A stretch of DNA of 20,000 bases, taken from the IMG/VR virus record IMGVR_UViG_3300036760_000988; one strand, written 5' to 3'. Position numbers and translations under genes: made by a program. Source of the DNA: an uncultured virus (IMG/VR IMGVR_UViG_3300036760_000988). Lineage: Duplodnaviria; Heunggongvirae; Uroviricota; Caudoviricetes. The notes beneath the pieces are model-generated. The model saw only the letters and a list, made by a program, of their open reading frames with translations, had not been told where the DNA came from and did no database searches. Positions within the stretch are counted from its first letter, which is position 1; every line of letters starts with the position of its first letter. This document shows positions 1 to 18,080 of this stretch, in pieces.

Positions 1-494
1 AAGCGAGAGGATCTGCGATTTCGTGCCTGCTCCTTGTCGGTGGCCCAGCGAATGTTCCCAGGCATGTAGTCGCCGGTGTTGTCGATGCGATCGATCGACT
101 GTCCCCGGGGACGTGGGCCCAAGTGCTCGTTCACGTAGGCGGCGAACACCTCGAAATCGTGCAACCACGGCGCGTGGATGTGGATGTCGGGGTACCACGT
201 ACGCTGCCCCGTCTCGATGGGGCGACAGCGATCCTTGATCGAGACCCAGGTGCGATAGAGTGGGGTCCGCGATTGACCGTGCGTGGTGGCAACACGGCGC
301 ATGTTGTCCACCGCCAAGCAGCCGCACGATTTCGCATGACCAATCATGAGATTGGTCTCGCGCACCCACTTTTCCTTCCCACAGTCGCACTTGACGTGTA
401 CCCACCAAAATTTCTGTTTTTCGTTTTCGCCCTGCCGCTGCTCTCGTCCGAGAGCTGTCAGCCGACCGAATCGATCTCCGATTACGACACTCAT
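1..494 (-). CDS. Phage-type HNH homing endonuclease, 3'-truncated by the window edge (not in the ORF track)
   Basis: Manual translation from ATG at 494 gives MSVVIGDRFGRLTALG...VKCDCGKEKWV...KSCGCL...THGQSRTPLYRTWVSIKDRC...LGPRPRGQSIDRIDNTGDYMPGNIRWATDKEQARNRR, open to the window edge. GxRFGRL, CxCG, SCGC and SIDRIDNxGxYxPxNxRWAT-xxxQxxN are hallmark motifs of this family. SD AGGAGG lies at 505-500. Confidence 0.92.
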   Translation of the reverse strand, partial: MSVVIGDRFGRLTALGREQRQGENEKQKFWWVHVKCDCGKEKWVRETNLMIGHAKSCGCLAVDNMRRVATTHGQSRTPLYRTWVSIKDRCRPIETGQRTWYPDIHIHAPWLHDFEVFAAYVNEHLGPRPRGQSIDRIDNTGDYMPGNIRWATDKEQARNRRSSR

Positions 495-525
495 GGGAGC
501 CTCCTGCGTAGGAGGCTCCCATGAG
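490..525 (-). promoter_or_regulatory. Perfect 16-bp hairpin sequestering the SD and ATG of the HNH gene
   Basis: ctcatgggagcctcct (490-505), 4-nt loop, aggaggctcccatgag (510-525). On the minus strand the 3' arm reads AGGAGGctcccATGag. There is no U-tract on either side. Confidence 0.85.
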
Positions 526-573
526 CCTATTCGATTGTCAACTACTACGACGGGATAACTTCCAACAGGGGCG

Positions 574-673
574 GTCCATCACAAACATGATTACCTTTCC
601 CTGTCGGTCATTATCAGGTTTGTTACTGGACGTCTCTCGTCTGGAGACCGTCGATCACAAACATGATAACTTT
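574..673. repeat. Degenerate direct repeat: non-coding copy (574-597) of a segment near the 3' end of the capsid-candidate gene (650-673)
   Basis: gtccatcacaaacatgattacctt vs gtcgatcacaaacatgataacttt, 21/24 identical with a 14-nt exact core atcacaaacatgat. On the minus strand the copies read KVIMFVMD vs KVIMFVID. Confidence 0.8.
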
Positions 674-1198
674 CTCGTCGTCAGTGGCCCCCGTGTTGAG
701 GAGGGTGAGCGCGTTCACGGAGCCGACCGTGAAGAACTGCGCCTCGACGGCGAAGTTCTGGCGGACGGGCACCATGATCGGGCGGGCCAGCTTCAGGATC
801 GACTCCTGGGTGGGCTCACCCAGGTTGAAGATCGACGTGGTGGCGTCGAAGCCCCACACGCCGCCGCCCGACGGGTAGTACCAGCACGGCGCCTGGAACG
901 CCGGCTTGTCGCCCAGGGACAGCGTGAAGTACAGCTGCGACGTGACCCGCAGGTAGTTGTTCCGGCGGTTGGTGCCGTTGAAGTACAGCCAGCACCGCAG
1001 CGCCAGGATGATGTACGTCTGGTCGCTCGCGAGCTGACCCGCCACCTGCAGGTTGGTCAGCGCGAGATTCCCGACGTTGGCGTTGCCGAACAGTCGCTGG
1101 GACGACTGGATGGTGGGCGTCGGATCGCCCGTGGTGCGGATCAGCGTATCCCAGAACGGCTGGTGCCGTCTTTCCTTCACTCCGTGCAGACGCGGCAT
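623..1198 (-). CDS. 191-aa beta-strand-rich protein; candidate single jelly-roll major capsid protein
   Basis: The real start is likely MPRLHGVKERRHQPFWDTL at 1198 (GGAG SD at 1210-1207, A-rich spacer). It has many alternating hydrophobic strands (YIILALRCWLYF, LYFTLSLG, PIMVP, FAVEAQF, VIMFVIDG), no TM helix, and its own structured leader at the end of the structural operon. The CDS is solid; the capsid role is inference. Confidence 0.6.
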   Translation of the reverse strand: MPRLHGVKERRHQPFWDTLIRTTGDPTPTIQSSQRLFGNANVGNLALTNLQVAGQLASDQTYIILALRCWLYFNGTNRRNNYLRVTSQLYFTLSLGDKPAFQAPCWYYPSGGGVWGFDATTSIFNLGEPTQESILKLARPIMVPVRQNFAVEAQFFTVGSVNALTLLNTGATDDEKVIMFVIDGLQTRDVQ

Positions 1199-1227
1199 GT
1201 TGTTTTCTCCACTGTTTTTAGTTTCGT

Positions 1228-1316
1228 CCCGAGCCATCTCGGGGCAGGAGGGGTGGCTTCCCCACCGGAGATCACAGCATTGAGGGTTTGCAGAAACAGA
1301 GTTTGCGAACCGCAAA
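1228..1316 (-). promoter_or_regulatory. Structured intergenic leader upstream of the capsid candidate (three short hairpins)
   Basis: Stems are tttgcg/cgcaaa (1302-1316), ggtgg/ccacc (1252-1266) and cccgag/ctcggg (1228-1243), followed by an A-rich tract and the SD. Confidence 0.45.
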
Positions 1317-1317
1317 T

Positions 1318-1542
1318 TTACGAATACAGCCTTTGGTACTTCCTGCGACGACGCCGGATCTCGGCGCCGATCTTCACCTTCGCGTGCGCGATGCGGGCGT
1401 GCCGCACGATCTTCTTCCGTCGCTTGACCAGCTGCCAGGCCACGAGCCCTCCACCCAACCACACCCACCACGGCGTGCCCGTGAGGACCCCCGAGAGGGG
1501 GTGTGGTTGGGCGGCGGGCACCGTGGGCTGGACGTAGGACAT
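1318..1542 (-). CDS. 74-aa membrane protein, MSYV N-terminus, basic C-terminus
   Basis: MSYVQPTVPAAQPHPLSGVLTGTPWWVWLGGGLVAWQLVKRRKK...RRRRRKYQRLYS. TGATG overlap with the upstream gene. Confidence 0.8.
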   Translation of the reverse strand: MSYVQPTVPAAQPHPLSGVLTGTPWWVWLGGGLVAWQLVKRRKKIVRHARIAHAKVKIGAEIRRRRRKYQRLYS

Positions 1543-1754
1543 CAGCGGCTCTTGCCGTACGTCTGGTGCATCTGCTGCCGCTCTGTTGGCGTCAAGCGCA
1601 GTGCGTAGTTCTTGTCGTACCAGCGCCAGGCGAAGTAGCCCCCCGCCAGCCACGCCCACCACGGCAGATCAGGAACCAACCCCCCCAGCGCACTGAGGGG
1701 TTGCGGTGGCGTGGCGAGCGAGGTGCCCGGCACTCTGGTGTTGACGTAGGACAT
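1542..1754 (-). CDS. 70-aa membrane protein, MSYV N-terminus; paralogue-like to 1318-1542
   Basis: MSYVNTRVPG...PQPLSALGGLVPDLPWWAWLAGGYFAWRWYDK. It shares PWWxWLxGG with the next gene and starts 1 nt after the upstream stop. Confidence 0.8.
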   Translation of the reverse strand: MSYVNTRVPGTSLATPPQPLSALGGLVPDLPWWAWLAGGYFAWRWYDKNYALRLTPTERQQMHQTYGKSR

Positions 1755-1755
1755 A

Positions 1756-3273
1756 CTACCCGAGCGAACCCATCCCACCGGCGAAGATGCCGGTGTAGAC
1801 CTGCGCGCGGGCGTCACGCTGTGGTGACCAGTTCGGGATCTGCTTCACGAAGTTCTTCGAGGGCACCGGCGCGAGCATGGACCGCTGCGCGACCGGGGCG
1901 AGCTGCGTGTTCGCGCCGCCCAGCTCCTGCTGCAGCGCGCCCAGCTCCTCCTCCATGCCGGACTGCGACATGTCGCCCAGCTCCTCCTCGGCGCCGGTCT
2001 CGATGTAGTCGCCCATGCCGGTCTCCATGTACTCGCCGGTCTCCATGTACTCGCCCATCTCCTGCTGGAGGGCGCCGAGGGCGTTGTCGTACACGCCACT
2101 GTCGCCGATGGCCAGGTACTGCTGGATCGACGCGGGCGCGTACGTCTTGACCACGGACATCAGCATGTTGATGCCGAGGCCCGCGAGGATGCCCTGCCGC
2201 CACTTGGCGAGCGGGCCTCGCTTGGTCGCGAAGTGCCCCGCGCCGACCATGAGCAGGGACAGCACCGGATCACGGTGCTGCCCGAGCTTGTCGAGGCCCG
2301 GGATCATCGGGCCCACCTTGTTGGTGATCAGGCGGCCGACGACCATGCCCCCCAGCACCGGCGCGGCGTGCTTGGCGACATCGCTGAGGAAGCCGATCGC
2401 GCCCGCGGGGTTCCGCGTGTACAGGCTCTTGATCTTGCCGCGGCTGATCGTGCCGCCCTTGCGGCGCCGCGCGCGTCCACCGCGGATGCCGTAGGCCCGG
2501 CGTGCCGCCGTGCGGCCCGACACCCGACGACGCCGCGGCGCGGCCCGACGGCGCCCGCGCGTCGACCGGCGACGCCGCGGGGCGGCGCGACGGGCCGACT
2601 TCCGCGAGCCCGACTTGCCGTACCGGCGCTTGCGCGTGCGCCACGCCTTCTTGCCGGCGGCCGAGCGGCTGCGCTTGCGCCCACGCCGCGGGGCGGCGCG
2701 ACGGGCGGACTTGCGGCTGCCCGACTTGCCGTACCGGCGCTTGCGCGTACGCCACGCCTTCTTGGCGGCGGCCCGACGCCCGCGCTTGCGCCGCGGAGCC
2801 GCCCGGCGCGCGGTCTTGCGGCTGCCCGACTTGCCGTAGCGGCGCTTGCGCGTGCGCCACGCCTTCCGGCTGGCTGCCGCACGCTTGGGGGACTTCCGAC
2901 GACGCTTCGCCATGGTGCTGCCTCTCTTTCGGGTGGTGGACGTAGTGGTGGTCTTGGCGCCGGCATACGCGCGGCGCGCTTTCGCGTAGCCCGCGCGACT
3001 CCGCGCCTTCCGGGCCTTGGGCTTGGGATACGAGGCGCCGCCGCCGAACGTGCGGGCGTAGCCGGCGCGGTACGCCGCCCCCGAGCCCTTCGCGCTCGGG
3101 TTGCGACGCCGCCGCACGGTGCGCCGCGGGTTGGTCTTGTACGAACCCTTGACCCGCGGATGTGCGAGGCGACGATGACGTGCAATAGAACGCCCCTTAC
3201 GCTTCGGGTTCCGGCGCGACTTGCGACGCGCAACGGGGCGGGGGCTCGACGGATTGACGTACCAGATGGGCAT
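1756..3273 (-). CDS. 505-aa bipartite protein: Arg/Lys-rich protamine/histone-like N-half, Gly-rich hydrophobic helices and an acidic repeat tail; candidate DNA-condensing virion core protein
   Basis: Start MPIWYVNP at 3273 with a GGAG SD. It has three copies of KAWRTRKRRYGKSGSRK(T/S)ARRAAPRR and five NP motifs. The C-part contains APVLGGMVVGRLI, VLSLLMVGAGHF, GILAGLGINMLM and then GEYMET/EEELG repeats. Confidence 0.8.
   Translation of the reverse strand: MPIWYVNPSSPRPVARRKSRRNPKRKGRSIARHRRLAHPRVKGSYKTNPRRTVRRRRNPSAKGSGAAYRAGYARTFGGGASYPKPKARKARSRAGYAKARRAYAGAKTTTTSTTRKRGSTMAKRRRKSPKRAAASRKAWRTRKRRYGKSGSRKTARRAAPRRKRGRRAAAKKAWRTRKRRYGKSGSRKSARRAAPRRGRKRSRSAAGKKAWRTRKRRYGKSGSRKSARRAAPRRRRSTRGRRRAAPRRRRVSGRTAARRAYGIRGGRARRRKGGTISRGKIKSLYTRNPAGAIGFLSDVAKHAAPVLGGMVVGRLITNKVGPMIPGLDKLGQHRDPVLSLLMVGAGHFATKRGPLAKWRQGILAGLGINMLMSVVKTYAPASIQQYLAIGDSGVYDNALGALQQEMGEYMETGEYMETGMGDYIETGAEEELGDMSQSGMEEELGALQQELGGANTQLAPVAQRSMLAPVPSKNFVKQIPNWSPQRDARAQVYTGIFAGGMGSLG
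1992..2060. repeat. Coding 18-bp tandem repeat (GEYMET units)
   Basis: gccggtctccatgtactc occurs at 2017-2034 and 2035-2052, with a degenerate copy near 1993-2010. Confidence 0.8.
2572..2870. repeat. Three coding tandem repeats of 105-111 bp period in the basic protein
   Basis: The core cccgacttgccgta(c/g)cggcgcttgcgcgt(g/a)cgccacgccttc begins at 2609, 2720 and 2825. Both periods are multiples of 3. Confidence 0.9.
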
Positions 3274-3354
3274 TGTTCTCTCCGTTAGGGACGGCGACGT
3301 TTGCAACTCACTAAGTCGTCGCCACGAACCGGAGAGATCGTGGAGGCAAGGCTA

Positions 3355-3383
3355 AGTGAATGCGATCTCACCATCCGTGTCAA
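3355..3383 (-). promoter_or_regulatory. Possible sigma70-type promoter for the basic-protein/capsid sub-operon
   Basis: Perfect TTGACA at 3383-3378, a 17-nt spacer, and only a weak -10 (TTCACT, 3360-3355). It lies in one of the few intergenic gaps of the operon. Confidence 0.35.
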
Positions 3384-3387
3384 GGTG

Positions 3388-3636
3388 CTATTTCTTCCAC
3401 AAGGAGATCAGGGTCGAGACTCCCGCCGCCACCACCGCGGTGGCGATCGAGATGCCGATGTAGATGCCGATGACCTTGGCCCGCCAGTCGGCGTGGGTCT
3501 TGACCTCCCCCTCGATGAGCTGGATCCGCCCGGTGTGGTCCTTGAACTTGTCCTCGAAGTCATTCAGCTTGGTACAGACCTCGCCCATGCTGCGGTGGAG
3601 GTCGATCAAGATCTCATCACGCTGATGTTCGTTCAT
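3388..3636 (-). CDS. 82-aa coiled-coil protein with C-terminal TM helix (XhlA/holin-accessory-like architecture)
   Basis: MNEHQRDEILIDLHRSMGEV...RIQLIEGEVKTHADWRAKVIGIYIGISIATAVVAAGVSTLISLWKK. ATGA overlap with the upstream gene. Confidence 0.75.
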   Translation of the reverse strand: MNEHQRDEILIDLHRSMGEVCTKLNDFEDKFKDHTGRIQLIEGEVKTHADWRAKVIGIYIGISIATAVVAAGVSTLISLWKK

Positions 3637-4121
3637 CCGACGATCCCTTCCGCGCGCACGTCTAGCGCGCCGCCCCAGAACCCCGCCAGGAGGCGTGCGG
3701 ATCGTCCGTCGACCTCGATCACCAGGAGGGCTTTCCCGTCTGGGGTGGCGTACAGCTCGGGCAAGGGTTGCTTCACCTTGGCCTCGACCGGCTGGTCGTC
3801 GAAGTCGGTGTACTCGAAGCCTAGACAGTCCCCGAGCTTGTAGAGCGTGGTCACGGTCTGTACGAAGGTGGGCACCGCGATCTTGATCTCTCCGCGCGCA
3901 TCGGGGCGGTAGCACATGACACCCCCCTCGAAGTCGTGGATGTAGTCGTGCATGATCCCCTCCCACTTGTCCGAGCGGTAGCAGATGTGCACGCCGGCCC
4001 CGACGGAGTAGATCTTGGGCGGGATCCGCAGCCCCGCCAAGAGGCCCTGCTCGATCGGCGGGAACTTGTGGAAGCGCGCGTAGCCCTCCTGCGCCGCGTT
4101 CAGATCGGGGGGGTTCTTCAT
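3633..4121 (-). CDS. 162-aa soluble hypothetical protein (possible minor virion protein)
   Basis: Normal composition and strong GC3 bias, with ATGA coupling at both ends. Motifs include YARFH, YRSDKW, YIHDF and GGALDVRAEGIVG. Confidence 0.8.
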   Translation of the reverse strand: MKNPPDLNAAQEGYARFHKFPPIEQGLLAGLRIPPKIYSVGAGVHICYRSDKWEGIMHDYIHDFEGGVMCYRPDARGEIKIAVPTFVQTVTTLYKLGDCLGFEYTDFDDQPVEAKVKQPLPELYATPDGKALLVIEVDGRSARLLAGFWGGALDVRAEGIVG

Positions 4122-4594
4122 GGCCGGTACTCCTTCAGGAGCTGAACGAAGCCTGGGTTCGAGAGGGCGTCGCGTCCGCGCGCGGCGCGGATGAGATCGA
4201 CGGTCTCTGATGTGGGGAGGTGGGTGTGCTTGCGCACCGCAATCCCCGTCACCAGGCCCGAACGATTCAATCCGGCGTAGCAGGTGACCAGGCAGCGCCG
4301 GTTGCGATCGAGCAGCTCGGCCACGCGCTCGCCGGCACGCACGGCAATGTTCACCTCGTGCGGTGAAGGCGTGCGCGTGTCGTCGAACGGCGCGTAAATC
4401 AGGAGCGTACGTCGCGGATCACCAAAGTCGGGCTGGTACTCCTCCGCGCAGAACACCACCACGTGGAAGTCCCGCAACTCCCGCAAGGCTTCCGGGCGTC
4501 CGCCCATGTAGAGCCCGCGGATCACCCGATCCGCGTCGAGGCCCGCGGGGAGGGGCTTGCCGCCCGTGATGTAGCGATCCGGGACGTAACTCAC
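4118..4594 (-). CDS. Dual-specificity/protein-tyrosine phosphatase (CX5R), 158 aa
   Basis: P-loop LVTCYAGLNRSG, upstream GLYMGG, acid loop APFDD, and C-terminal IRAARG..ALSNPGFVQLL. GTG start at 4594 (GTGA overlap) gives MSYVPDRY. Confidence 0.92.
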   Translation of the reverse strand: MSYVPDRYITGGKPLPAGLDADRVIRGLYMGGRPEALRELRDFHVVVFCAEEYQPDFGDPRRTLLIYAPFDDTRTPSPHEVNIAVRAGERVAELLDRNRRCLVTCYAGLNRSGLVTGIAVRKHTHLPTSETVDLIRAARGRDALSNPGFVQLLKEYRP

Positions 4595-4908
4595 TTGCGC
4601 TTCTTTCCCCAGTGCTTCCACAGCCAGTACCCGACCCCTCCCGCGAGGAGGAGCTTCACCAGCGAGGTCTCGTTGTTCGAGAGTCCACCGAGGGTCGCGA
4701 TCATCCCGCGGGGATCCGCGCCGGTGCCCGTCTGCTTGGCGCCGGCCGGCAGCGGCCAACCAGCAGTGGCGGGATCCATGCCCAGCTCGGCGCGACTGAA
4801 CTTGCCTCCGGCGGACAGATGCCCGGTGACCGGCGGGCGGTCGTCGTGCATGCCCGTCTCGTAGTACGTGTAGATCTTCGCGTCGGGATTCCACACGGAG
4901 TAGATCAT
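4591..4908 (-). CDS. 105-aa protein with C-terminal TM helix and basic tail
   Basis: MIYSVWNP...TLGGL...LVKLLLAGGVGYWLWKHWGKKRK. Translationally coupled at both ends. Confidence 0.8.
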   Translation of the reverse strand: MIYSVWNPDAKIYTYYETGMHDDRPPVTGHLSAGGKFSRAELGMDPATAGWPLPAGAKQTGTGADPRGMIATLGGLSNNETSLVKLLLAGGVGYWLWKHWGKKRK

Positions 4909-5091: not shown

Positions 5092-5499
5092 TCAGCGCCG
5101 CCGACGCCGCCTGGCGGGCTTGCTCGCACCGCGCTTGCCAGTGAGTAGGAACACCCCGAGAAGCGCCGCGCCGCCGAGGAGCGCGTACGTGGGCAGGTTG
5201 CCGATGCCGGCCGTCTTCACACCTGCCCCGCCAGGAGTGGTGCGGAACGGCGCGACCGGCGGCACATAGACATCTGACGCCTTGGCGTACTTCTTCGGGT
5301 CGTACTGCTTCCCCGCCGCCTTCGCCGCCGCGTACTGCTTGGCTGCGTCCGTGCCCGGCTTGAGCCCCGCCCGGATCAGCTCCAGCGGATCGATCGGCGG
5401 TGGTGTCGGGGTCACCGCCTGGGTGAGGCTCGCCCACAGCTTGTCGGTCCAGCTCTGTGTCGGTGGGGGTGCGGACCAGCCAGTCTGAACATAGCTCAT
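5092..5499 (-). CDS. 135-aa membrane-anchored protein, MSYV N-terminus, polybasic tail
   Basis: MSYVQTGW...GNLPTYALLGGAALLGVFLLTGKRG...RRRRR. ATGA overlap, with a GGAGG SD inside the upstream Arg codons. Confidence 0.85.
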   Translation of the reverse strand: MSYVQTGWSAPPPTQSWTDKLWASLTQAVTPTPPPIDPLELIRAGLKPGTDAAKQYAAAKAAGKQYDPKKYAKASDVYVPPVAPFRTTPGGAGVKTAGIGNLPTYALLGGAALLGVFLLTGKRGASKPARRRRRR

Positions 5500-5615
5500 C
5501 GCCGCCTCCGCTTCGGGTTCGTGGTCTTCTTGCCCTTGAGCAGGATCACGGCGAGGAGTGCCGCGCCGCCGAGGAGCGCGTACGTCGGCAGGTTGCCGAG
5601 GCCCGCGGTCTTCAC
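5165..5615. repeat. 56-bp direct repeat encoding a shared membrane-anchor module in two adjacent genes
   Basis: 5165-5220 vs 5560-5615, 52/56 identical. Encodes VKTAG(I/L)GNLPTYALLGGAA. Confidence 0.9.
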
Positions 5616-6086
5616 GCCGCCAGGCGTGACGGCCCGCAACACCGGGAGCGTGGCCTGTTGCATGCCCGTGGACCGCAGCACCGGCGTAGCCAGCGCGAGG
5701 CTCCCCTTTGCGGTCTGCGCCGCGATCAGGGGGAGTAGAGCGGCATGCGCCAGCTCCCCCGTCGGGGCCTTCGCGCCCCCGACGGCGGCCTGGATGTTGT
5801 TCCAGGCGGCCTGCGCATCGAATGAGAGCGTGCCGCGACTGAGCGGCGTCAGCCCCTGCTCCCGCAGGCGGGCGTATGCCGCGCGTAGCACTTCCACGTT
5901 CGCCTGTAGCTCCTCCGCCGGACCGTGCATGAACAGCGGGCCCCCCAGCTCACGCGCGGGGGCGGTCGACGGCGGGAAGGGGTAGCCCCGCCAGTCCTGC
6001 ACGTAACGCCGCTGCGCTCCGTACTGATAGTAGCGGGGATCGTAGGGCGCCGCCTGGTACGGCGTGTTGGTCGGGAGGTAGCTCAT
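5496..6086 (-). CDS. 196-aa membrane-anchored protein, MSYL N-terminus, polybasic tail
   Basis: Tyr/Pro-rich N-terminus, ELGG motif, and C-terminal YALLGGAALLAVILLKGKK..NPKRRRR. Confidence 0.85.
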   Translation of the reverse strand: MSYLPTNTPYQAAPYDPRYYQYGAQRRYVQDWRGYPFPPSTAPARELGGPLFMHGPAEELQANVEVLRAAYARLREQGLTPLSRGTLSFDAQAAWNNIQAAVGGAKAPTGELAHAALLPLIAAQTAKGSLALATPVLRSTGMQQATLPVLRAVTPGGVKTAGLGNLPTYALLGGAALLAVILLKGKKTTNPKRRRR

Positions 6087-6601
6087 CGTCTTCCTTTCCT
6101 TCTGCGCACCGGGCGTCGCTTGCGCGCCGGCTTGAGATTGCGCGACAAGTACTTGCGCGCCGCAAACGCGCCCCCGAACGCCAGCAGCAAGGCCCAGCCC
6201 ATCGGCAGCCCGGCCATACGGACGCTCATAGGTTTTACAGGTGGTTGGGTGCTCGCCGGCTGCAAGCGCCAGAGTGCGTAGTTCACGTTGTAGAGCGCCT
6301 CGGCCGGTTTACGCGTCAAGGGATTCAGCTTCTCTGTCCCCGGCGGCTTCATGAGCGCCACGTAGTCGTTCCACGCCGCGGTGTACACCCCCGCCGTGGG
6401 CAAGGGCCAGAGCATGACGTTCGACCCCCACGCCTCCGGCGCCGCGGGGTTGTGCACCGTGCCGTCCGCCTCGGTCCAGGGCGTGACTTGCAAGAACTTG
6501 CCCTGCCACGCCGCGGGCAGCGCCACGAGTTGATCGCGGAGCGCCTTCAAGGTCGAGTAGAGCGCGCTCGGGGTCGCGCCCAAGGTGGCCATGTACCCCA
6601 T
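6083..6601 (-). CDS. 172-aa membrane-anchored protein with polybasic tail
   Basis: MGYMATLGAT...MGWALLLAFGGAFAARKYL...RRRKGRR. TAATG and ATGA coupling. Confidence 0.85.
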   Translation of the reverse strand: MGYMATLGATPSALYSTLKALRDQLVALPAAWQGKFLQVTPWTEADGTVHNPAAPEAWGSNVMLWPLPTAGVYTAAWNDYVALMKPPGTEKLNPLTRKPAEALYNVNYALWRLQPASTQPPVKPMSVRMAGLPMGWALLLAFGGAFAARKYLSRNLKPARKRRPVRRRKGRR

Positions 6602-7422
6602 TACCGTCTCCGACGCTTCGTGGTGCGCGGCTTCTTGCCCTTGCCGCCGAGCAGGAGGAAGCCGGCGCCGATGCCGAGGGCGAGCATGGGCAACATGCCC
6701 ATGCTACCGAAGCCGGAGGTGAGGGGAGGCGTCTCGGGGATCACGTACCCTCCTCCGCCACCACCGCCACCACCGCCGGCCGGCGGCGCGATACTGCCAC
6801 TCGCCGCCTTCGCGATCTTGGCTTGGGTGTCGCCGCGGGCGAGCGCCTGCAGCGCGGCGGTCCAGTCCGCGGGAGTGGAGATCGTCCCAGGCGCCCCGAG
6901 CTTCACCACCGCAGTGTGATACTCGGTTACGGCCTTGGCCCACGCCGCGTTGGCGACGTGTTTTCCCAGTGCGTTGTTCGTCGCCGCCTCGAACTGCGCG
7001 GAGACCTTCTCGCCGCCCTTCGCGTAGGCGAGCTTCTGATCGTGTTCGTCGGCGAGGCCGCCGAGCCCCTGCAGCCCCCCGAAGTCCTCCATGCGCTCGC
7101 CGCGGGCCAGCTCCTCGAAGACCTCCCACCACTGCCACTTGAGGTAGCTCCGGCCCCGCGCCATGCGCGCGAGGGTCTGCCGCGTCTTGGTGCCGAAGAC
7201 GCCATCCTCGGGGATCTTCGCGCCGAGTCGATTCAGCCCCCGCTGTGTCGCCGCGACGAGGATACGGGTGATGTTCGAGTCCGGATCGGCCTCGCCCACG
7301 GTCCACCAGAGCCCTGGCACCGCGGACACCGCGTCCATCATGTTGCGGCCGAAGCTGCGCAGCAGCTCGACGCCCGAGCCAGCATCCGTCGGGGTGCCAG
7401 CCATCGCCTGGTAGTAGGTCAT
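6601..7422 (-). CDS. 273-aa membrane-anchored protein with a peptidoglycan-binding (PGBD/PG_binding_1-like) motif
   Basis: ATQRGLNRLGAKIPEDGVFGTKTRQTL fits Q..L..LG....DG.FG..T. It also has a poly-Gly linker, TM helix MLPMLALGIGAGFLLLGG and tail KRRRR. Confidence 0.8.
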   Translation of the reverse strand: MTYYQAMAGTPTDAGSGVELLRSFGRNMMDAVSAVPGLWWTVGEADPDSNITRILVAATQRGLNRLGAKIPEDGVFGTKTRQTLARMARGRSYLKWQWWEVFEELARGERMEDFGGLQGLGGLADEHDQKLAYAKGGEKVSAQFEAATNNALGKHVANAAWAKAVTEYHTAVVKLGAPGTISTPADWTAALQALARGDTQAKIAKAASGSIAPPAGGGGGGGGGGYVIPETPPLTSGFGSMGMLPMLALGIGAGFLLLGGKGKKPRTTKRRRR

Positions 7423-8158: not shown

Positions 8159-9115
8159 TTACCGCTTCCCGCCGCGTCGCGTCGCCACGAGCACGAGCGC
8201 CAGCGCGCCGCCCCCGAGGAGGAGCATCGGCAACATCGAGCCCCCACCCAGGAACGACTGCTGCTCCTGCTGCTGTTGCTGCAGCTGCTCCTTCGTGCAG
8301 ACCGCCCCCGCGATGGCGGCCCCGCCCGCGCCGGCCGGACCACCGGCCGCCGTGGCGACCGCCGCGAGCCCGCCCGAGTTGGCCGCCTTGCAGGCGAGGC
8401 TACCGATCCCCTTCACGATGCTCTTGCCGACGCCATAAGCGCCCGCGCCCACGGTCTTCGACGCACCGACGACGGCCTTGGCCCCCGAGTACTTGTACAC
8501 GGTGTCCCAGAACCCGGCGAGGTCCGCTTGCGCGCCGCAAGCGCCGCACGCGCCGCACCCCGCGAGCCCGAGCAACCCGCCGGTGGGCGCCTGGCCGGTC
8601 TTGCCCACCTTGATCACCTGCGCCAGGAAGCGGTTGGCGAACGCCGCCGCGAGCCCCTTCTCCAGCGCCACGGCCGGCGGGTACTTCTTGGCGTACGCCT
8701 CGGCCTTCGTCTCGACCTCGGCGTACATGCCGCTCTCGATGCTGTCGAGGATGGTCTTCATGAGCGGCTTCCGCACCGCCGGTTCGACGGTCATGATCCG
8801 CTGCATGACGAGCCGCGCCGCGTCGCGCCCGAACGCCGCGACTGGATCGCCCGCGGCCCCCACCGGCCCGCCCAGGGTCGAGCCGGCGAGCGAGGACCCT
8901 GCGAGGGTCGAGCCCGCCAGGGTCGAGCCGGCGAGGGTGTGCCCCCCGAGCGAGCCGAGCCCTTCGAGCCCCACGAACTCGCCGGGCGACAGCGACGAGA
9001 TCGTGCGCCGCGGGGTGTAGCGCGTCGTGATCGTGCCGCGCGCGAAGGGCTCGTCCATCACGTTGCCGGGCAGCGCGTAGCCGGGGTTCCAGGGGTTCGA
9101 CGCCTTCAAGTACAT
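8159..9115 (-). CDS. 318-aa Gly/Ala-rich membrane-anchored protein with LAGST pentapeptide repeats and a CGACGAC motif
   Basis: AAGGAG SD, repeats TLAGSTLAGSTLAGSSLAGSTLGG, a Gln tract, and TM helix MLPMLLLGGGALALVLVATRR. Confidence 0.85.
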   Translation of the reverse strand: MYLKASNPWNPGYALPGNVMDEPFARGTITTRYTPRRTISSLSPGEFVGLEGLGSLGGHTLAGSTLAGSTLAGSSLAGSTLGGPVGAAGDPVAAFGRDAARLVMQRIMTVEPAVRKPLMKTILDSIESGMYAEVETKAEAYAKKYPPAVALEKGLAAAFANRFLAQVIKVGKTGQAPTGGLLGLAGCGACGACGAQADLAGFWDTVYKYSGAKAVVGASKTVGAGAYGVGKSIVKGIGSLACKAANSGGLAAVATAAGGPAGAGGAAIAGAVCTKEQLQQQQQEQQSFLGGGSMLPMLLLGGGALALVLVATRRGGKR

Positions 9116-9136: not shown

Positions 9137-9673
9137 TTAGGCCACCGGCCAGAAACGGACGGCCTTCACGCGGTTCAACATCTTCGCCGTGTCGACCCCC
9201 GCGACCGGATCACAGGTGATCCAGGCGTTGGAGCGCGGCTCCTTCATCTGCGCGAACACGTGCGAGTACTGGCGCTGGCCCTTGTAGAACATGTCGGCAA
9301 ACGCCACCGTCGCCAGCCGCACCTCACGCCCGACCGCGAGCCCCAGCCCGCACTCGAAGCCCGCGAAGTCGTCGCAGTCGAGCTGCGGCACGTAGCCAGT
9401 CTGCAGCTGCTTGATGATCTCGACGGGGGCTTGGACCAGCTCCACCGTGCGCGGGTCTTGCATGTAGCGGGCGTGGCCCCAGCAGAAGTTGTTGAGGGCT
9501 AAGATCTCGGACAGGTAGTCCTTCGACCGCAGGTGCTGGCAGACGGCCTCGGCCAGGAGCCGCGGGCGGTAGTCGTCCTGCGAGCGCAACGCCGCGTCCC
9601 GGATCACCGCCACGGTCTGGGGCGCTCCGCGATAGCTCAGGCGTAGAATTCGCTCGTCGTCGAACTGTCGCAA
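9137..9673 (-). CDS. Transglutaminase-like (Cys-His-Asp) cysteine enzyme; candidate maturation protease
   Basis: LDCDDF (Cys), YSHVF (His) and WITCDPV (Asp), plus RYMQDP..VELV..P typical of the family. TTG start, with an in-frame stop just upstream. Confidence 0.85.
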   Translation of the reverse strand: MRQFDDERILRLSYRGAPQTVAVIRDAALRSQDDYRPRLLAEAVCQHLRSKDYLSEILALNNFCWGHARYMQDPRTVELVQAPVEIIKQLQTGYVPQLDCDDFAGFECGLGLAVGREVRLATVAFADMFYKGQRQYSHVFAQMKEPRSNAWITCDPVAGVDTAKMLNRVKAVRFWPVA

Positions 9674-14041: not shown

Positions 14042-14500
14042 ATGACCCGGACCATTACCCGCCGCGTACCCGACCCTACCGCCCTCGCCGCGCTCCTCGC
14101 GGCGTGCCGCGCCGTGGGGTTGTCCGACGCGGACACCGCGACGGAGCTAGAGCTAGCCCGGTCCGGCACGGCGTCTGACGTGGCGCACCGTGCCGCGCTC
14201 CTCGCGGGGCGCGCGGACCTAGCCGACCGTCCCGAAGTGCCCGCCCCCGTACCCGACGGCGCGGGCGTGTTGCGGCGCGGGCAGTGGCGCGGCGTCCCGT
14301 GCGCCACGGGGGTTGACGTGGGGCGGCTTTCCGCCCGGATCCCCGGGCCGGCGGACGGTCGCCCCCGGGACGCGCTCCGGGTAATTCACACGGCGGCCCG
14401 GGACGCCGCCCGGGACGCGCACCGTGCGGACCGGGGGAAACGTGCCAAGCCCCGGGGGCGGGGGCGCTGGCATCCGGGCGGAGGTTACTCGGCCGAGTAG
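14042..14500 (+). CDS. 152-aa hypothetical protein, possible HTH-like N-terminal segment
   Basis: ATG at 14042 after two hairpins. GLSDADTATELELARSG resembles an HTH turn. A terminator follows; there is no clear SD. Confidence 0.5.
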   Translation: MTRTITRRVPDPTALAALLAACRAVGLSDADTATELELARSGTASDVAHRAALLAGRADLADRPEVPAPVPDGAGVLRRGQWRGVPCATGVDVGRLSARIPGPADGRPRDALRVIHTAARDAARDAHRADRGKRAKPRGRGRWHPGGGYSAE

Positions 14501-14525
14501 CCCCCCGGGGGCGTGACTCGGCACT

Positions 14526-14564
14526 AGCCCCCACGGGCCTCCGTGGGGGCTGTTTCCCGTTTTC
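14526..14564 (+). terminator. Intrinsic terminator
   Basis: Perfect 11-bp stem agcccccacgg/ccgtgggggct with a 4-nt loop, followed by gtttcccgttttc. Confidence 0.7.
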
Positions 14565-14566
14565 GG

Positions 14567-14599
14567 GCTTGCGGACCGCAAGCGCTTGATGTACATCAA
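14567..14599 (+). promoter_or_regulatory. Putative promoter of the AAA operon overlapped by two perfect palindromes
   Basis: TTGCGG (14569-74), 17 nt, TACATC (14592-97). The palindromes are gcttgcgg-a-ccgcaagc (14567-14583) and ttgatgtacatcaa (14586-14599). Confidence 0.55.
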
Positions 14600-14615
14600 T
14601 CCACGGAGGACGATC

Positions 14616-14762
14616 ATGCTGTTGAGTCTGGTTCACCCGGGGCACGCCGCCCCGTCGCTGGCCTTCCCCCACGTTGGGGGCTGGCTGATCTTGGGGGCGG
14701 CGCTCGCCCTCGTCGGGTGCGCGGCCCTCCGCGCGTGGAGGACACGTCATGGAAACCCGTAG
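14616..14762 (+). CDS. 48-aa small membrane protein (not in the ORF track)
   Basis: GGAGG SD at 14605-14609. MLLSLVHPGHAAPSLAFPHVGGWLILGAALALVGCAALRAWRTRHGNP. It overlaps the ATPase start by 14 nt. Confidence 0.6.
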   Translation: MLLSLVHPGHAAPSLAFPHVGGWLILGAALALVGCAALRAWRTRHGNP

Positions 14763-16299
14763 CAGCAAGGTCAACGCGGACATCACCGCGCTCCTCAAGG
14801 CCCGCAACACGCTGCTCTGGATCACTTCGCGCGAGGAGATCCGCGTGGAGCGCGCCCTGGTCGCCGCCTGCGGCGATGCGTCGTACAAGGTCCGCTTCTG
14901 GGACTGCGCGACCGGCATCACCGATGACCAGGGCACGCCCGTGGAGATGAGCGCGCAGGATCCGAACGCGTGTCTGACGTTCATCCGGGAGCGCCGGGTG
15001 CGCTGCGTGTACGTCCTGCGCGATCTGCACAAGTGGTTCGATCCCGTGGTCCTGCGCGCCGTGCGCTCGCTCGCGCGGGAGCTGCAAGTCGCGCCGCCCG
15101 ACGAGGCACGGGCGCTCGTCCTCCTCACGCCCTCGGGCGAGGTGCCCCCGGAGCTGTCGGGGGCGACCGTGATCGACTACCCGCTCCCCGATCGGGCCGA
15201 AGTCGCGGCGCTCCTCGACGACGTGATCGCCGCGCTCCCGGAGGCGCGTCGCGCCAACGCCGCACCGAACGGCGTGCGGGAAGCCGCGATTGACGCGGCG
15301 GTCGGCCTCTCCGCCGAGGAGGCCGCGAACTGCTACGCGCTCTCGCTCGTCAAGCTCAAGCGGATCGATCCGGTGCTCATCTCGAACGAGAAACGCCGGG
15401 TGATCGCCCGCGAGAAGGTCTTGACGTGGTATGAGCCCGACCCTCGGGGGCTCGCGGCCATCGGCGGCCTGGATCTGCTCAAGGGTTGGCTCACCGCGCG
15501 CCGGTCGGCCTTCGGCGCGAAGGCCCGCGCCTTCGGGTTGCCCTGGCCCAAGGGCATGCTGCTGCTCGGCCCCCCGGGGACGGGCAAGAGCTTGACCGCG
15601 AAGTGCGTCGCCGCCGCGTGGGGGATGCCGCTGCTCAGGTTGGACATGGGCGCGCTGAAGTCCAAGTACGTCGGCGAGTCGGAGGGGAACATCAGGAAGG
15701 CGCTGCAAGTCGCAGAAGCGGTCGCGCCGTGCATCCTGTGGCTGGACGAGATCGAGAAGGCGCTCGCCGGGTCGACCGGCGCGCAGGGCGATGGCGGCGT
15801 GTCCGCGGACGCGCTCGGCGCGGTGCTCTCGTGGATGCAGGAGCGCTCCGGGAGCGTCTTCGTGGTCGCGACGGCGAACGATGTCCGGGCGCTCCCCCCG
15901 GAGCTGCTCCGTAAGGGGCGCTTCGACGAGCTGTTCTTCGTCGACTTGCCGACGACCAGCGAGCGCGTGGAGATCGTCAAGGCCGCGCTGGGCCAGTACG
16001 GGCGCGGCGACGTGGCGATCAACCATGCCGAGGTCGCACGGGTCACGGTCGGCTTCACCGGAGCCGAGATCGCAGCGCTCGTGCCCGACGCGCTGCACGT
16101 CGCCTTTGCCGCGGACGCCCGGGAGATCCTCACGAGCGATCTCATGAACGCGGCGGAGACGGTGGTACCGCTCTCGAAGACCGCCGCGGAGCAGATCAAT
16201 TCGCTCCGCGCTTGGGCGAAGGGCCGCACGCGCCCCGCCTCGACCCCTGAAACGAACACCACGGGCACGGTGCGTGCCCTCGACCTGGACGCCAACTAA
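14749..16299 (+). CDS. AAA+ ATPase, Ycf46/SpoVK-like (degenerate N-terminal AAA module plus active C-terminal module)
   Basis: Walker A GPPGTGKS, pore loop KYVGESE, Walker B ILWLDEIEK, sensor-1 ATAN and SRH LPPELLRKGRFD. The N-part has EEIRVE, VLRDLH and IDYPLPD. GGAGG SD. Confidence 0.93.
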   Translation: METRSSKVNADITALLKARNTLLWITSREEIRVERALVAACGDASYKVRFWDCATGITDDQGTPVEMSAQDPNACLTFIRERRVRCVYVLRDLHKWFDPVVLRAVRSLARELQVAPPDEARALVLLTPSGEVPPELSGATVIDYPLPDRAEVAALLDDVIAALPEARRANAAPNGVREAAIDAAVGLSAEEAANCYALSLVKLKRIDPVLISNEKRRVIAREKVLTWYEPDPRGLAAIGGLDLLKGWLTARRSAFGAKARAFGLPWPKGMLLLGPPGTGKSLTAKCVAAAWGMPLLRLDMGALKSKYVGESEGNIRKALQVAEAVAPCILWLDEIEKALAGSTGAQGDGGVSADALGAVLSWMQERSGSVFVVATANDVRALPPELLRKGRFDELFFVDLPTTSERVEIVKAALGQYGRGDVAINHAEVARVTVGFTGAEIAALVPDALHVAFAADAREILTSDLMNAAETVVPLSKTAAEQINSLRAWAKGRTRPASTPETNTTGTVRALDLDAN

Positions 16300-16320
16300 C
16301 CGCAACACGGAGGACGACGA

Positions 16321-17097
16321 ATGGACAACACGAAGGTTGCAAAGATTCGCCCCGGCTACATGATCGCGCTGCACTCGACGGTGCAGGGCGGCGTGAGCTA
16401 TCAACGAGTTGATTTGGCCGCGCCCAAGGAGAACTCGGAGCGCGCCGTCGCCCGCTGGGAGACGACCCGGGTGATCGAGGACCCGATCGAGCACGAGCGG
16501 GCGAACAAGGCCCGCTCGAAGGCGCGCGGCGAAATCACCAAGCTGTGCTGCGCGACGGCTTTTGGCCTCCTCTGCCCGAAGGAGAACGCCACGGAGCTGA
16601 CGGAGGCGGTCGCCCGCGCGCAGGCGATCATTGCGGAGCACAACAGCGGTGCCATCTTCACCCGGATCGGCCTGTACGTGCTGAAGGGGGAGATCGCTAG
16701 CTCGGATGAGGAGGCTACGCGTTCGATCATGGCCGAGCTGGCGTCCCTCGTCGCCGAGATGAACACCGGCATCGATCGGCTGGAGCCCAAGAAGATCCGG
16801 GACGCGGCGGATCGCGCCACCCAGATGATCGCCATGCTCGGCGAGCAGGAGGGCGAGGCCGCGAGCGCGGCGATCGAGGCCGCGCGCCGTGCCGCGCGCC
16901 AGATCGTCAAGCGCGTGGAGAAGGAAGGGGAGGCGGCGGCCATCGTGCTGAAGGACATCCAGCGGGGCGCGCTGGAGAAGGCCCGGATCGCCTTCCTCGA
17001 TTTGAGCGACGCCGCCCCCGCGAGCGCGCCGCTGCCGAGCGCGCAGCTGCAGCGGTTCGCCGATCTCGACACGACGGCGGAGACGACCAAGCAGTAG
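16321..17097 (+). CDS. 258-aa helical hypothetical protein, AAA ATPase partner
   Basis: GGAGG SD, strong GC3 bias and an Ala/Glu-rich helical C-half. It starts 21 nt after the ATPase stop. Confidence 0.85.
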   Translation: MDNTKVAKIRPGYMIALHSTVQGGVSYQRVDLAAPKENSERAVARWETTRVIEDPIEHERANKARSKARGEITKLCCATAFGLLCPKENATELTEAVARAQAIIAEHNSGAIFTRIGLYVLKGEIASSDEEATRSIMAELASLVAEMNTGIDRLEPKKIRDAADRATQMIAMLGEQEGEAASAAIEAARRAARQIVKRVEKEGEAAAIVLKDIQRGALEKARIAFLDLSDAAPASAPLPSAQLQRFADLDTTAETTKQ

Positions 17098-17157: not shown

Positions 17158-17496
17158 ATGCCATGTGATTCGATTCGTCAAGCAGGGCAAACGCTCGCCC
17201 AGCGCACCGCGCAGATCGATGTGGCGTTGAAGCGCCTGGAGGCGTCCCTCCTGGGCGGGCGCGTCGCGGTCGGCATCGGACCGAACGGCGCGATCGTGCT
17301 CAAGGGCTGGGCCGACCGCGACGACATCACGGACGTGTGCGCGATCCGCACGCTCACGGCGGCGAACTCCTGGGCGCTCCGGCAGGCCATCGCCCGCGCC
17401 GAGGCGACGACGGGCAAGAAGGTCAACATGCAGGCGGTCGCCGCGGGGGTTCATTCTCACGATGGTGGCCGCTCATGGTATCCTGGTCACAAATGA
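17158..17496 (+). CDS. 112-aa hypothetical protein of the AAA operon
   Basis: ATG at 17158 with a GGAGGT SD. MPCDS...GVHSHDGGRSWYPGHK. Confidence 0.8.
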   Translation: MPCDSIRQAGQTLAQRTAQIDVALKRLEASLLGGRVAVGIGPNGAIVLKGWADRDDITDVCAIRTLTAANSWALRQAIARAEATTGKKVNMQAVAAGVHSHDGGRSWYPGHK

Positions 17497-18080
17497 AACG
17501 ACTGCCTCTTACCAACAGGCGATTTGGTAGCTGGACCGTGCTTCAACCAACACGATGCCGTAGCGGCGGCCTATATTGGAAATGTCGGTGTGTCTGCGGA
17601 ACCGTTCGTGAGGTCCGTGGAGATCGACTCTCGCATGGCCTGTCCCAGTCCTGTGGCTGCGCCAAGCTAACACAGAAAGGATTGAGCAAGAGCAGACGAA
17701 CTGAATTTGATATTTGGCGTCACATGATCGCGCGTTGTCGTCCGAACGGACTAGCGAGATATGGCGTCCGTGGCATCCGTGTCTGTAAACGCTGGAGGAT
17801 CTTCTCGACGTTCCTTGCCGATATGGGACGTAAACCGAAAGGTAAAAGTTTAGATCGTAAAAATAATAACGGAGATTACAACCCGAACAACTGCCGATGG
17901 GTTACTCAACGCGAGCAAATGAACAATCGAGGCAATAATCATCGATTGAAGTTTCGAGGAGAGACTTTGACCATCGCTGAGTGGGCGCGATGTTTGAAAA
18001 TTAGCTGGTGGACACTCGCTTCGCGCCTCCGGTACGGATGGTCAATAGCTCGAACGCTCACTGAGCCTGTCAGACACTGA
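17493..18080 (+). CDS. Phage-type HNH homing endonuclease, 195 aa
   Basis: ATGA overlap at 17493-6. Motifs RFGSWTV, WKCRCVCG, SCGC, WRHMIARC, YGVRGIRVCKRW and DMGRKPKGKSLDRKNNNGDYNPNNCRWVT..Q.NN, plus a C-terminal helix-turn-helix-like TIAEWA..L. The gene is visibly more AT-rich than its flanks. Confidence 0.92.
   Translation: MKRLPLTNRRFGSWTVLQPTRCRSGGLYWKCRCVCGTVREVRGDRLSHGLSQSCGCAKLTQKGLSKSRRTEFDIWRHMIARCRPNGLARYGVRGIRVCKRWRIFSTFLADMGRKPKGKSLDRKNNNGDYNPNNCRWVTQREQMNNRGNNHRLKFRGETLTIAEWARCLKISWWTLASRLRYGWSIARTLTEPVRH

Follow-up and report, generated by a model that had tools for sequence, protein, structure and literature searches.

The DNA analysed here, referred to as the window, is a 20,000-nucleotide stretch of the genome of an uncultured virus (IMG/VR record IMGVR_UViG_3300036760_000988). 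At 1756..3273 its minus strand carries the gene under study (the target), which runs from an ATG at 3273–3271 to a stop codon at 1758–1756 and encodes a protein of 505 amino acids (aa). The product consists of a long polybasic N-terminal arm and a conserved C-terminal domain (C-domain), with an asparagine–proline (Asn-Pro, NP) dipeptide at the boundary. A first-pass annotation, made from the window sequence, had described it as a protamine-like DNA-condensing domain fused to membrane helices and an acidic tail, that is, as a polyprotein that tethers condensed genome to an internal membrane and is processed at NP.

A Shine-Dalgarno-like GGAGAG (3278..3283, minus strand) lies 4 nt 5' of the ATG and likewise precedes the start in the homologous loci L001 and L004; L001–L007 denote the loci of seven IMG/VR contigs retrieved with the 191-aa protein encoded downstream of the target, and G001–G005 the contigs behind L001–L004 and L006. 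The protein begins with a conserved octapeptide, MPIWYVNP (3250..3273, minus strand), for which homologue comparison gives the family pattern M-P-I/L-x-Y/F-V/M-N-P/G. The octapeptide is common to the window, the homologues P0002, P0006 and P0008, and loci L001 and L004, and it takes the form MPILFVNG, with a GTG start, in L002, L003 and L005. Its variants are frequent among the starts tabulated for 116 representatives (MPIMYVNP in 7; MPIWYVNP, MPIVYMNP, MPIMFVNP and MPLWFINP in 2 each), and divergent genomes also have MPTWFVNP. Because the open frame, the ribosome-binding site and the octapeptide recur across divergent genomes, the frame is considered to be translated. Plus-strand open reading frames (ORFs) over the region, such as 2233–3288, were rejected as genes, being shadows of the conserved minus-strand frame. 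It could be argued that the basic half is an artefact, an untranslated GC-rich repeat 5' of a shorter real gene, since high G+C yields long open frames on both strands here and several database homologues have been called from an internal Met. That explanation is scarcely credible given the conservation just described, the exclusion of acidic residues from the arm and a GC3 of 0.86 in the frame.

The internal Met deserves attention in its own right. In the window, AGAGAGG is followed by a 7-nt spacer and the in-frame ATG of Met121 (MAKRRRKS; ATG at 2913–2911, whole element 2911..2927, minus strand), forming a candidate internal start; the element includes an AGA, a codon used for no other Arg of the N-terminal half. 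GGAG, GAGG or AGGAG lies 6–8 nt 5' of the corresponding Met in all seven genes compared (window, L001–L005 and L007, the Met of L007 being assigned by motif only), compared with 5 of 57 other internal Met codons in the first 330 residues. The internal Met stands just before an AAKKAW..TR.K.Y motif, and the residues encoded upstream of it differ between genes. The conserved motif, together with the choice of this Met as the start of several database homologues by gene callers, suggests two nested products from one frame, of 505 aa and ~385 aa.

No promoter-like site was found in window positions 1–4500, no terminator-like site on the target strand directly flanks the gene, and Rfam has no match in the window. 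The window sequence occurs in one sediment-metagenome run, its possible source, and in a second run with a small share; no RNA sequencing run containing the stretch was found among the runs listed.

The polybasic arm and the conserved C-terminal domain

The arm (aa 1–289; 2407..3273, minus strand) contains 118 Lys and Arg residues and no Asp or Glu. Over aa 1–296 the composition is 28.4% Arg, 15.5% Ala, 11.5% Lys, 10.1% Gly and 9.1% Ser, with K+R at 40%. A 111-bp tandem repeat (2.8 copies, 85% matches, Tandem Repeats Finder; 2571..2866, minus strand) encodes three units of ~37 aa, KKAWRTRKRRYGKSGSRK.ARRAAPRR, also written KKAWRTRKRRYG..., so that both the earlier description of ~290 aa dominated by R/K/A/S/G and its three ~36-aa repeats are borne out. 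The label protamine-like holds for composition, since the arm has a high, acid-free basic content in runs parted by neutral residues; it does not hold for membership by sequence, as a Pfam scan of the whole protein returned 0 families at E<=0.01.

Homologues were recovered with the C-terminal half. A word-indexed search gave seven proteins (E 2e-44 to 2e-19), and a profile of 14 C-domains matched 377 of 1.84 billion cluster representatives at E<=1e-3 (the family as considered here), 196 at <=1e-10 and 118 at <=1e-30. In the homologue alignments the C-domain is conserved and the N-terminal arm does not align. The family is absent from annotated collections: the target had no match in Pfam or PHROGs and reached only 18–20 bits in NCBIfam against a cut-off of 202, and tblastn with the whole protein and with the C-domain against 50,697 phage records found no match, as was also the case for the 191-aa neighbour. 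For the C-domain, a PDB sequence profile search gave nothing better than E 1.2 and the protein atlas only unnamed viral clusters. Pattern-based locus searches of viral and genome contigs with the target returned nothing, which is a limit of the method, since the neighbour retrieved seven viral loci that bear target homologues. In the literature, supplementary files being outside the scope, nothing was found on the target protein, a comparable protein or the virus group.

The hypervariable arm was surveyed in 157 proteins (the best 150 of the 377 representatives plus earlier matches), in which 113 arms of >40 residues were measurable. Their length has a median of 193 aa (range 43–444), the K+R fraction a median of 0.436 (0.318–0.571), the D+E fraction a median of 0.005 (0–0.085), and the net charge a median of +81 (+18 to +165). 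The choice of basic residue is much less constrained, with a median share of 0.289 for Arg (0.08–0.45) and of 0.155 for Lys (0.01–0.36). Retention of charge while sequence, length and choice of basic residue vary is the signature of a non-specific polyanion binder, and these patterns support the view that the basic half behaves as a charge-selected polyanion binder. The variability of the arms, together with the 111-bp repeat, shows that the arm evolves by duplication and loss.

The C-domain opens with three moderately hydrophobic, Gly-rich segments (aa 291–322, 334–351 and 361–381; 2131..2403, minus strand). Their 19-residue Kyte-Doolittle hydropathy is 1.1–1.3, with a maximum of 1.31, compared with 1.55–2.24 in the C-terminal anchors of neighbouring proteins. 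Across the family the segment medians are 1.3–1.4 and only 6–19% of members exceed 1.6 in any one segment, the homologue in G004 reaching 2.0. Segments 1 and 3 have a helical periodicity of ~90–95 degrees in the family profile. By sequence, therefore, the three segments are amphipathic or moderately hydrophobic rather than clear transmembrane helices; the segments that the first-pass annotation called membrane helices do exist, at a hydrophobicity below the transmembrane level.

The acidic region that follows (aa 406–452; 1918..2058, minus strand) has three G(D/E)Y(I/M)ETG repeats, namely two GEYMET and one GDYIET, plus two EEELG, in agreement with the original description; the acidic stretch counts 17 D/E and 0 K/R in 68 aa. 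The proposal that this tail serves as an intramolecular chaperone is not supported, because 17 acidic residues set against 118 basic ones cannot chaperone by charge. Moreover, the residues conserved in the family repeat, G(D/E)Y(I/V)E(T/V)G, are Tyr and Gly and not the acids, in an alternating 180-degree, strand-like periodicity, and the region looks more like a docking element. The protein ends in a conserved motif, YTGIFAGG (1774..1797, minus strand), of which G213 and F215 are invariant in 98 sequences.

Asparagine–proline dipeptides in the arm and at the junction

NP occurs in the window protein at aa 7, 22, 48, 58 and 288, in the contexts YVNP, RRNP, KTNP, RRRRNP and TRNP, exactly as first quoted; aa 22–23, 48–49 and 58–59 fall within 3097..3210 and the junction Asn288-Pro289, at the boundary between basic arm and conserved domain, at 2407..2412 (both minus strand). 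These are all five Asn of the basic half, whereas none of the six Asn of the C-terminal half is followed by Pro. Counts over 14 arms, those of the window, the seven loci and six proteins from databases, give Pro after 78 of 109 Asn, with Pro at 187 of 3468 positions overall (5.4%); the corresponding C-domains have Pro after 3 of 75 Asn. A binomial calculation for the enrichment in the 14 arms gives 3e-73, a figure that overstates independence because the sequences are related. In the larger sample, 317 of 505 non-boundary Asn in 116 arms precede Pro against a Pro frequency of 4.9%.

At the junction the constraint is on the Asn. All 125 representatives that include >15 residues upstream of the junction have Asn there; the next residue is Pro in 116 of them, and in the other nine it is G, S, A, A, G, F, S, I or A. 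The junction Asn is invariant in alignments A1, A2 and A4; in A4, with 98 sequences, it is one of only four invariant columns, the others being one Gly of hydrophobic segment 3 and, in the C-terminal motif, a Gly and a Phe.

The enrichment is confined to this protein. In G004, a related complete genome, Pro follows 44 of 673 Asn (6.5%) in the 105 other ORFs, whose Pro content is 6.3%, and in 12 other window proteins the count is 9 of 78 against 6.9% Pro. Enrichment in the arm combined with a flat genome-wide control indicates that NP is a selected feature of the arm and junction rather than a virus-wide signal, and a genome-wide or DNA-level bias was rejected on the G004 figures. The annotation had also pointed to MKNP at the start of the protein encoded at 3633–4121 and to TNPKRRRR at the end of that at 5496–6086. 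Both are present; however, the idea of a signal common to the neighbouring proteins fails, since G004 is flat and MKNP is kept in only 3 of 7 homologues of the former protein (162 aa), for which a common NP signal was rejected. Around the arm sites no specific residue other than Asn-Pro itself was found. Arg dominates positions −2, −1 and +2 to +4, positions +2 to +4 being R/K-rich at 54–59% of 78 sites. At about one third of NP sites the preceding residues instead form a short hydrophobic patch similar to the start of the protein itself (GLTYVMNP and AALLYTNP, compared with MPIWYVNP).

Genomic context and proposed role

In all eight loci (window and seven contigs) the target homologue lies directly upstream of, and co-oriented with, the gene for the 191-aa protein (623..1198, minus strand, in the window); between the two, an HNH endonuclease gene is inserted in G004 and a small ORF in the window. 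The 191-aa protein is the most conserved of the block (75% mean column identity over 7 sequences) and, from its conservation and predicted fold, is a candidate major capsid protein. Its AlphaFold2 model is mostly beta strands (pLDDT 58.9). In an exhaustive structural comparison the best VIA-align scores were Z 6.5, to PBSX XepA and to the capsid protein of Sulfolobus polyhedral virus 1 (SPV1; 135 residues aligned), followed at Z 5–6 by coat proteins of plant satellite viruses and geminiviruses and by TNF-like sandwiches. The best BFVD match had E 5e-4 and TM 0.36, a PDB sequence profile search gave nothing better than E 0.73, and the protein atlas returned unnamed viral clusters, the nearest named entries being PRD1 P3/P2 at only 0.76–0.78. 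The predicted fold is therefore best called jelly-roll-like, with matches below the level that would prove kinship.

G001–G005 have direct terminal repeats and are 80–104 kb long, four of them rated 100% complete and G001 50%; a further copy is an 80.6-kb contig binned with a Gemmatimonadota genome, which offers the sole lead to a host. Terminase (PF03237, PF03354) and HK97 capsid (PF05065) profiles matched 0 of the 5 genomes in six-frame translation at E<=0.1, with matching controls, so that the two hallmarks of a tailed phage, a large terminase gene and an HK97-fold capsid gene, were found in none of them. ORF calling in G004 gave 106 ORFs; neither the 74 longest, compared with PHROGs, nor the 60 compared with Pfam include a packaging, portal, capsid or tail family, and no Walker-A proteins were seen in the ORF survey beyond a thymidylate kinase, a primase-helicase and a helicase. 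PHROGs identified replication and nucleotide-metabolism genes, an integrase, ParB, a methyltransferase and an M23 peptidase in this genome, and named only two HNH endonucleases and one weak 'virion structural protein' match in the 3–29 kb block that holds the target. On these sequence comparisons the lineage looks like an undescribed group of non-tailed viruses.

Many proteins of the block appear to be membrane-anchored. In G004, 13 of 106 ORFs end in a hydrophobic anchor with a Lys/Arg tail, 10 start with M-(S/G/T)-Y and 8 have both features, the series of small proteins of this kind being located at 9.6–20.3 kb. The window encodes proteins of this kind on the minus strand at 4591–4908, 5092–5499, 5496–6086, 6083–6601, 6601–7422, 8159–9115 and 1318–1542. 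Taken together, the tail-anchored proteins, the jelly-roll-like neighbour and the undetected terminase and HK97 capsid fit a particle with a membrane. The N-termini of the anchor proteins (MSY-I/V/L-x-x-G) resemble the G(D/E)Y(I/V)E(T/V)G repeats of the target and may represent a common docking motif.

The reading we favour, with almost as much trust as doubt, is that the target is a virion-internal protein that condenses and anchors the DNA of an uncultured bacterial virus of ~80 kb; DNA binding, virion location, anchoring and the membrane are each what we infer here. The long, disordered, charge-conserved arm would bind and condense viral DNA without sequence preference. Its +118 charges would help to neutralise the 80-kb genome, and by an arithmetic estimate it would take several hundred copies to cover a sizeable share. 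The C-domain, with putative amphipathic Gly-rich helices, strand-like acidic Tyr/Gly repeats and the ...LYTGIFAGG end, would fix the nucleoprotein to a lipid layer or to the inner surface of the shell. The NP dipeptides of the arm are most readily explained as turns or helix starts that interrupt the Arg runs, much as neutral residues separate the Arg stretches of protamines and as SPK(K/R) motifs do, the invariant junction Asn would mark a hinge between arm and anchor, and the 505-aa and ~385-aa products would probably both come from the one reading frame. The particle would then consist of a nucleoprotein core surrounded by a lipid layer and, outside that, a jelly-roll shell, as in portogloboviruses. 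A structural role is suggested by the position of the gene, which in 8 of 8 loci adjoins, in the same orientation, the gene for the block's most conserved protein. Of the internal-membrane tether proposed at first pass, the genomic context fits, and the segments of the target itself fall short of what transmembrane helices would require.

Several observations weigh against a virion-internal DNA-condensing role. In most family members the hydrophobic segments do not reach the threshold commonly applied to transmembrane helices, and the anchoring function suggested for the C-domain is read from sequence patterns. The undetected terminase means an absence of detectable sequence similarity, and very divergent versions are possible. 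In G004, PHROG labels include portal (on a NUDIX protein) and tape measure/minor head (on the M23 peptidase), which were discounted because the same proteins best match NUDIX and peptidase families; the weak 'virion structural protein' match covers the last 40 residues of a 455-aa protein. The model of the 191-aa neighbour is of low confidence, and Z values below 8 may reflect a common arrangement only. Finally, G004 encodes a paralogue of the target outside the structural block (43898–44776, minus strand; L016 3898–4776). It has 292 aa, of which only ~30 form the basic arm; the junction (HRKNP) is retained, as are all three hydrophobic segments and a long acidic tail, and the chain ends in ...LYDGVFTN. 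The C-domain can thus function when the arm is short, perhaps outside the particle.

The same features allow other explanations. The protein may be a processing precursor, cut after Asn at Asn288|Pro289 at least and perhaps at other NP sites, so that Asn side-chain attack, of the kind seen in asparagine-lyase coat proteins, or a virion protease parts basic DNA-condensing peptides from a membrane-active C-domain. The fixed junction Asn with a variable next residue is the pattern seen at self-cleaving Asn sites, the hydrophobic patches before one third of NP sites recall the protein's own start, and a protein of the same block (178 aa; 9137..9673, minus strand) is transglutaminase-like and thus a candidate protease or cross-linker. 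Its Cys-His-Asp residues (C100, H138 and D155) are invariant in the family and PF01841 is matched by 4 of 4 members (best E 1e-7); however, the window copy reaches only E 0.066 and a link to NP is hypothetical. Known Asn self-cleavage depends on a folded pocket, and a disordered poly-Arg arm would hardly form one at each of 5–10 sites, nothing specific surrounds the arm sites beyond Asn-Pro, and NP, not being enriched in other virus proteins, is not a general processing signal. Asn-Pro cleavage is plausible by analogy, and the polyprotein reading as a whole appears unlikely.

An intracellular role outside the virion, either as a tether between DNA and the cell membrane or in compaction of DNA (organising replication or shutting down the host nucleoid), would suit a polybasic arm with amphipathic helices anywhere in the cell, and the short-armed paralogue does lie among non-structural genes. 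We regard such a role as rather improbable in view of the strict synteny with the beta-sandwich gene in 8 of 8 loci and of the position of the target inside a long co-oriented block of membrane-anchored proteins that has no internal promoter-like site. Nested in-frame products are known for head-assembly genes such as lambda C/Nu3, and this precedent, together with the conserved C-terminal motifs, would be compatible with a scaffold, cement or size-determining shell protein whose basic arm is incidental and not for DNA condensation. An arm charge of +18 to +165 with almost no acidic residues in 113 members is hard to explain without a polyanion partner, and this makes the scaffold explanation distinctly improbable.

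In the usual view, the DNA of a bacterial virus is bare and is driven into the particle by a motor; genomes condensed by protein are found chiefly in adenoviruses, baculoviruses and some archaeal viruses. The favoured role, DNA condensation within the virion, has its closest functional counterparts in adenovirus proteins VII and mu, which are arginine-rich, condense a double-stranded DNA genome inside a capsid of the jelly-roll lineage and are trimmed from precursors by a papain-like cysteine protease; a separate amphipathic, membrane-active protein, VI, links shell and core. The target has no sequence similarity to any of these and fuses the basic and amphipathic parts in one chain. Its arm is 3–10 times longer, and its motif is Asn-Pro, compared with (M/L/I)XGG|X in adenovirus, cleavage in the target being hypothetical. 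The SPRRR tail of the hepatitis B core protein is a terminal region that neutralises nucleic acid in a similar way to the arginine-rich arms of other capsid proteins and in which short X-Pro elements break Arg runs. FlhB and YscU, with NPTH, have a self-cleaving Asn-Pro site.

The SPV1 virion is described as a jelly-roll shell, a lipid layer and a VP1 nucleoprotein core (PMC8459092). The plan suggested by the genes here is similar to that description, with the genome as nucleoprotein inside a membrane under a single-jelly-roll shell, and the SPV1 capsid protein is the joint-best fold match of the 191-aa neighbour, below kinship level; unlike the 80–104 kb relatives of the window, SPV1 is described as an archaeal virus of ~20 kb. 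No homology of the target to VP1 was found, no comparison aimed at it having been made. Arginine-rich arms of icosahedral-virus capsid proteins are characterised as disordered, poorly conserved and positive, and as neutralising the packaged nucleic acid (PMC7096446). Those arms comprise 20–60 residues on the shell protein itself, whereas the arm of the target family comprises 43–444 residues on a non-shell domain. Protamines and sperm histone tails rich in SPK(K/R) are reported to have Arg/Lys stretches parted by neutral residues (PMC3073880, PMC9903204). As reported for the SPK(K/R) tails, a small polar residue and Pro precede basic residues in the target arm, which is ~40% basic compared with 60–80% Arg in typical protamines; with Asn in place of Ser/Thr, control by phosphorylation would be impossible. 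By sequence the target belongs to none of the adenovirus core, portoglobovirus, capsid-arm and protamine groups.

Self-cleavage at Asn-Pro is reported for RsgI and, as cited in the same article, for reovirus mu1 and aquareovirus VP5 at Asn42-Pro43 (PMC10328401). The likeness to these proteins, as far as they are described there, is a conserved Asn-Pro at a functional boundary of a membrane-associated protein with Asn as the constant residue, and the junction of the target shows the conserved Asn of asparagine-lyase type proteins. Their sites are described as lying in folded turns of unrelated folds, whereas the target is known from sequence. The features that set the target apart from the known systems appear to be its selected Asn-Pro punctuation with an invariant junction Asn, the fused amphipathic/acidic anchor domain and the nested start.

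The family is large and unannotated, and the occurrence of a protamine-scale arm in genomes of 80–104 kb in which terminase, portal and HK97 capsid are unrecognised would point to a different way of building a bacterial virus particle. A bolder version, to which we give little credence, is that these ~80-kb viruses have no motor and build the particle around DNA pre-condensed by the target, and that the junction Asn cuts itself on assembly (a new asparagine-lyase family), freeing the basic nucleoprotein from a membrane-active C-domain that later aids genome delivery. If this were true, they would be the first bacterial viruses to combine a nucleoprotein core of the adenovirus or portoglobovirus type with a maturation switch driven by Asn. 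The invariant junction Asn offers a sharp and cheap experimental handle on cleavage, and the conserved internal start a second. Even under the modest reading the family merits a name and a profile, since these viruses are now annotated as rows of hypothetical proteins.

Neighbouring and accessory genes

Other genes of the block and of the related genomes are described here for completeness. In L001, the 191-aa protein is followed by a second beta-rich protein of ~207 aa that ends in ...LPGYRIVNM. The G004 copy of the transglutaminase-like gene appears to be interrupted by an insert. Within the structural block of the window, 4118–4894 (minus strand) encodes a dual-specificity phosphatase-like protein with a C-x5-R motif (PF00782 at E 5e-6, below the curated cut-off; phrog_10650). 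Genes for HNH homing-type endonucleases (phrog_374 and others) occupy differing insertion places, at 3–494 (minus) and 17337–18080 (plus) in the window and at 14447–15127 and 15724–16350 in G004, where one lies between the target and the 191-aa gene.

The window also encodes a classic AAA ATPase at 14749–16299 (plus strand; PF00004 at E 4e-32, phrog_8638 at E 1e-151). It was rejected as a packaging motor, as it is found in only 2 of the 5 related genomes, and weakly, and has relatives in tailed mycobacteriophages at ~41% identity; it is probably an accessory gene. In G004, three proteins of 815, 637 and 455 aa (20834–23281, 24543–26456 and 26491–27858; L015) have a common N-terminus, MAN-x-FL-x-I-PVP...G-x-G-x-AV.., and then diverge, as is typical of receptor-binding or vertex proteins that are exchangeable. 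Also in G004, the non-structural arm (L017) encodes a TnpB/Cas12f-like transposase-type protein (PF07282) and a pentapeptide-repeat protein, at 71657–73252 and 78184–79302.

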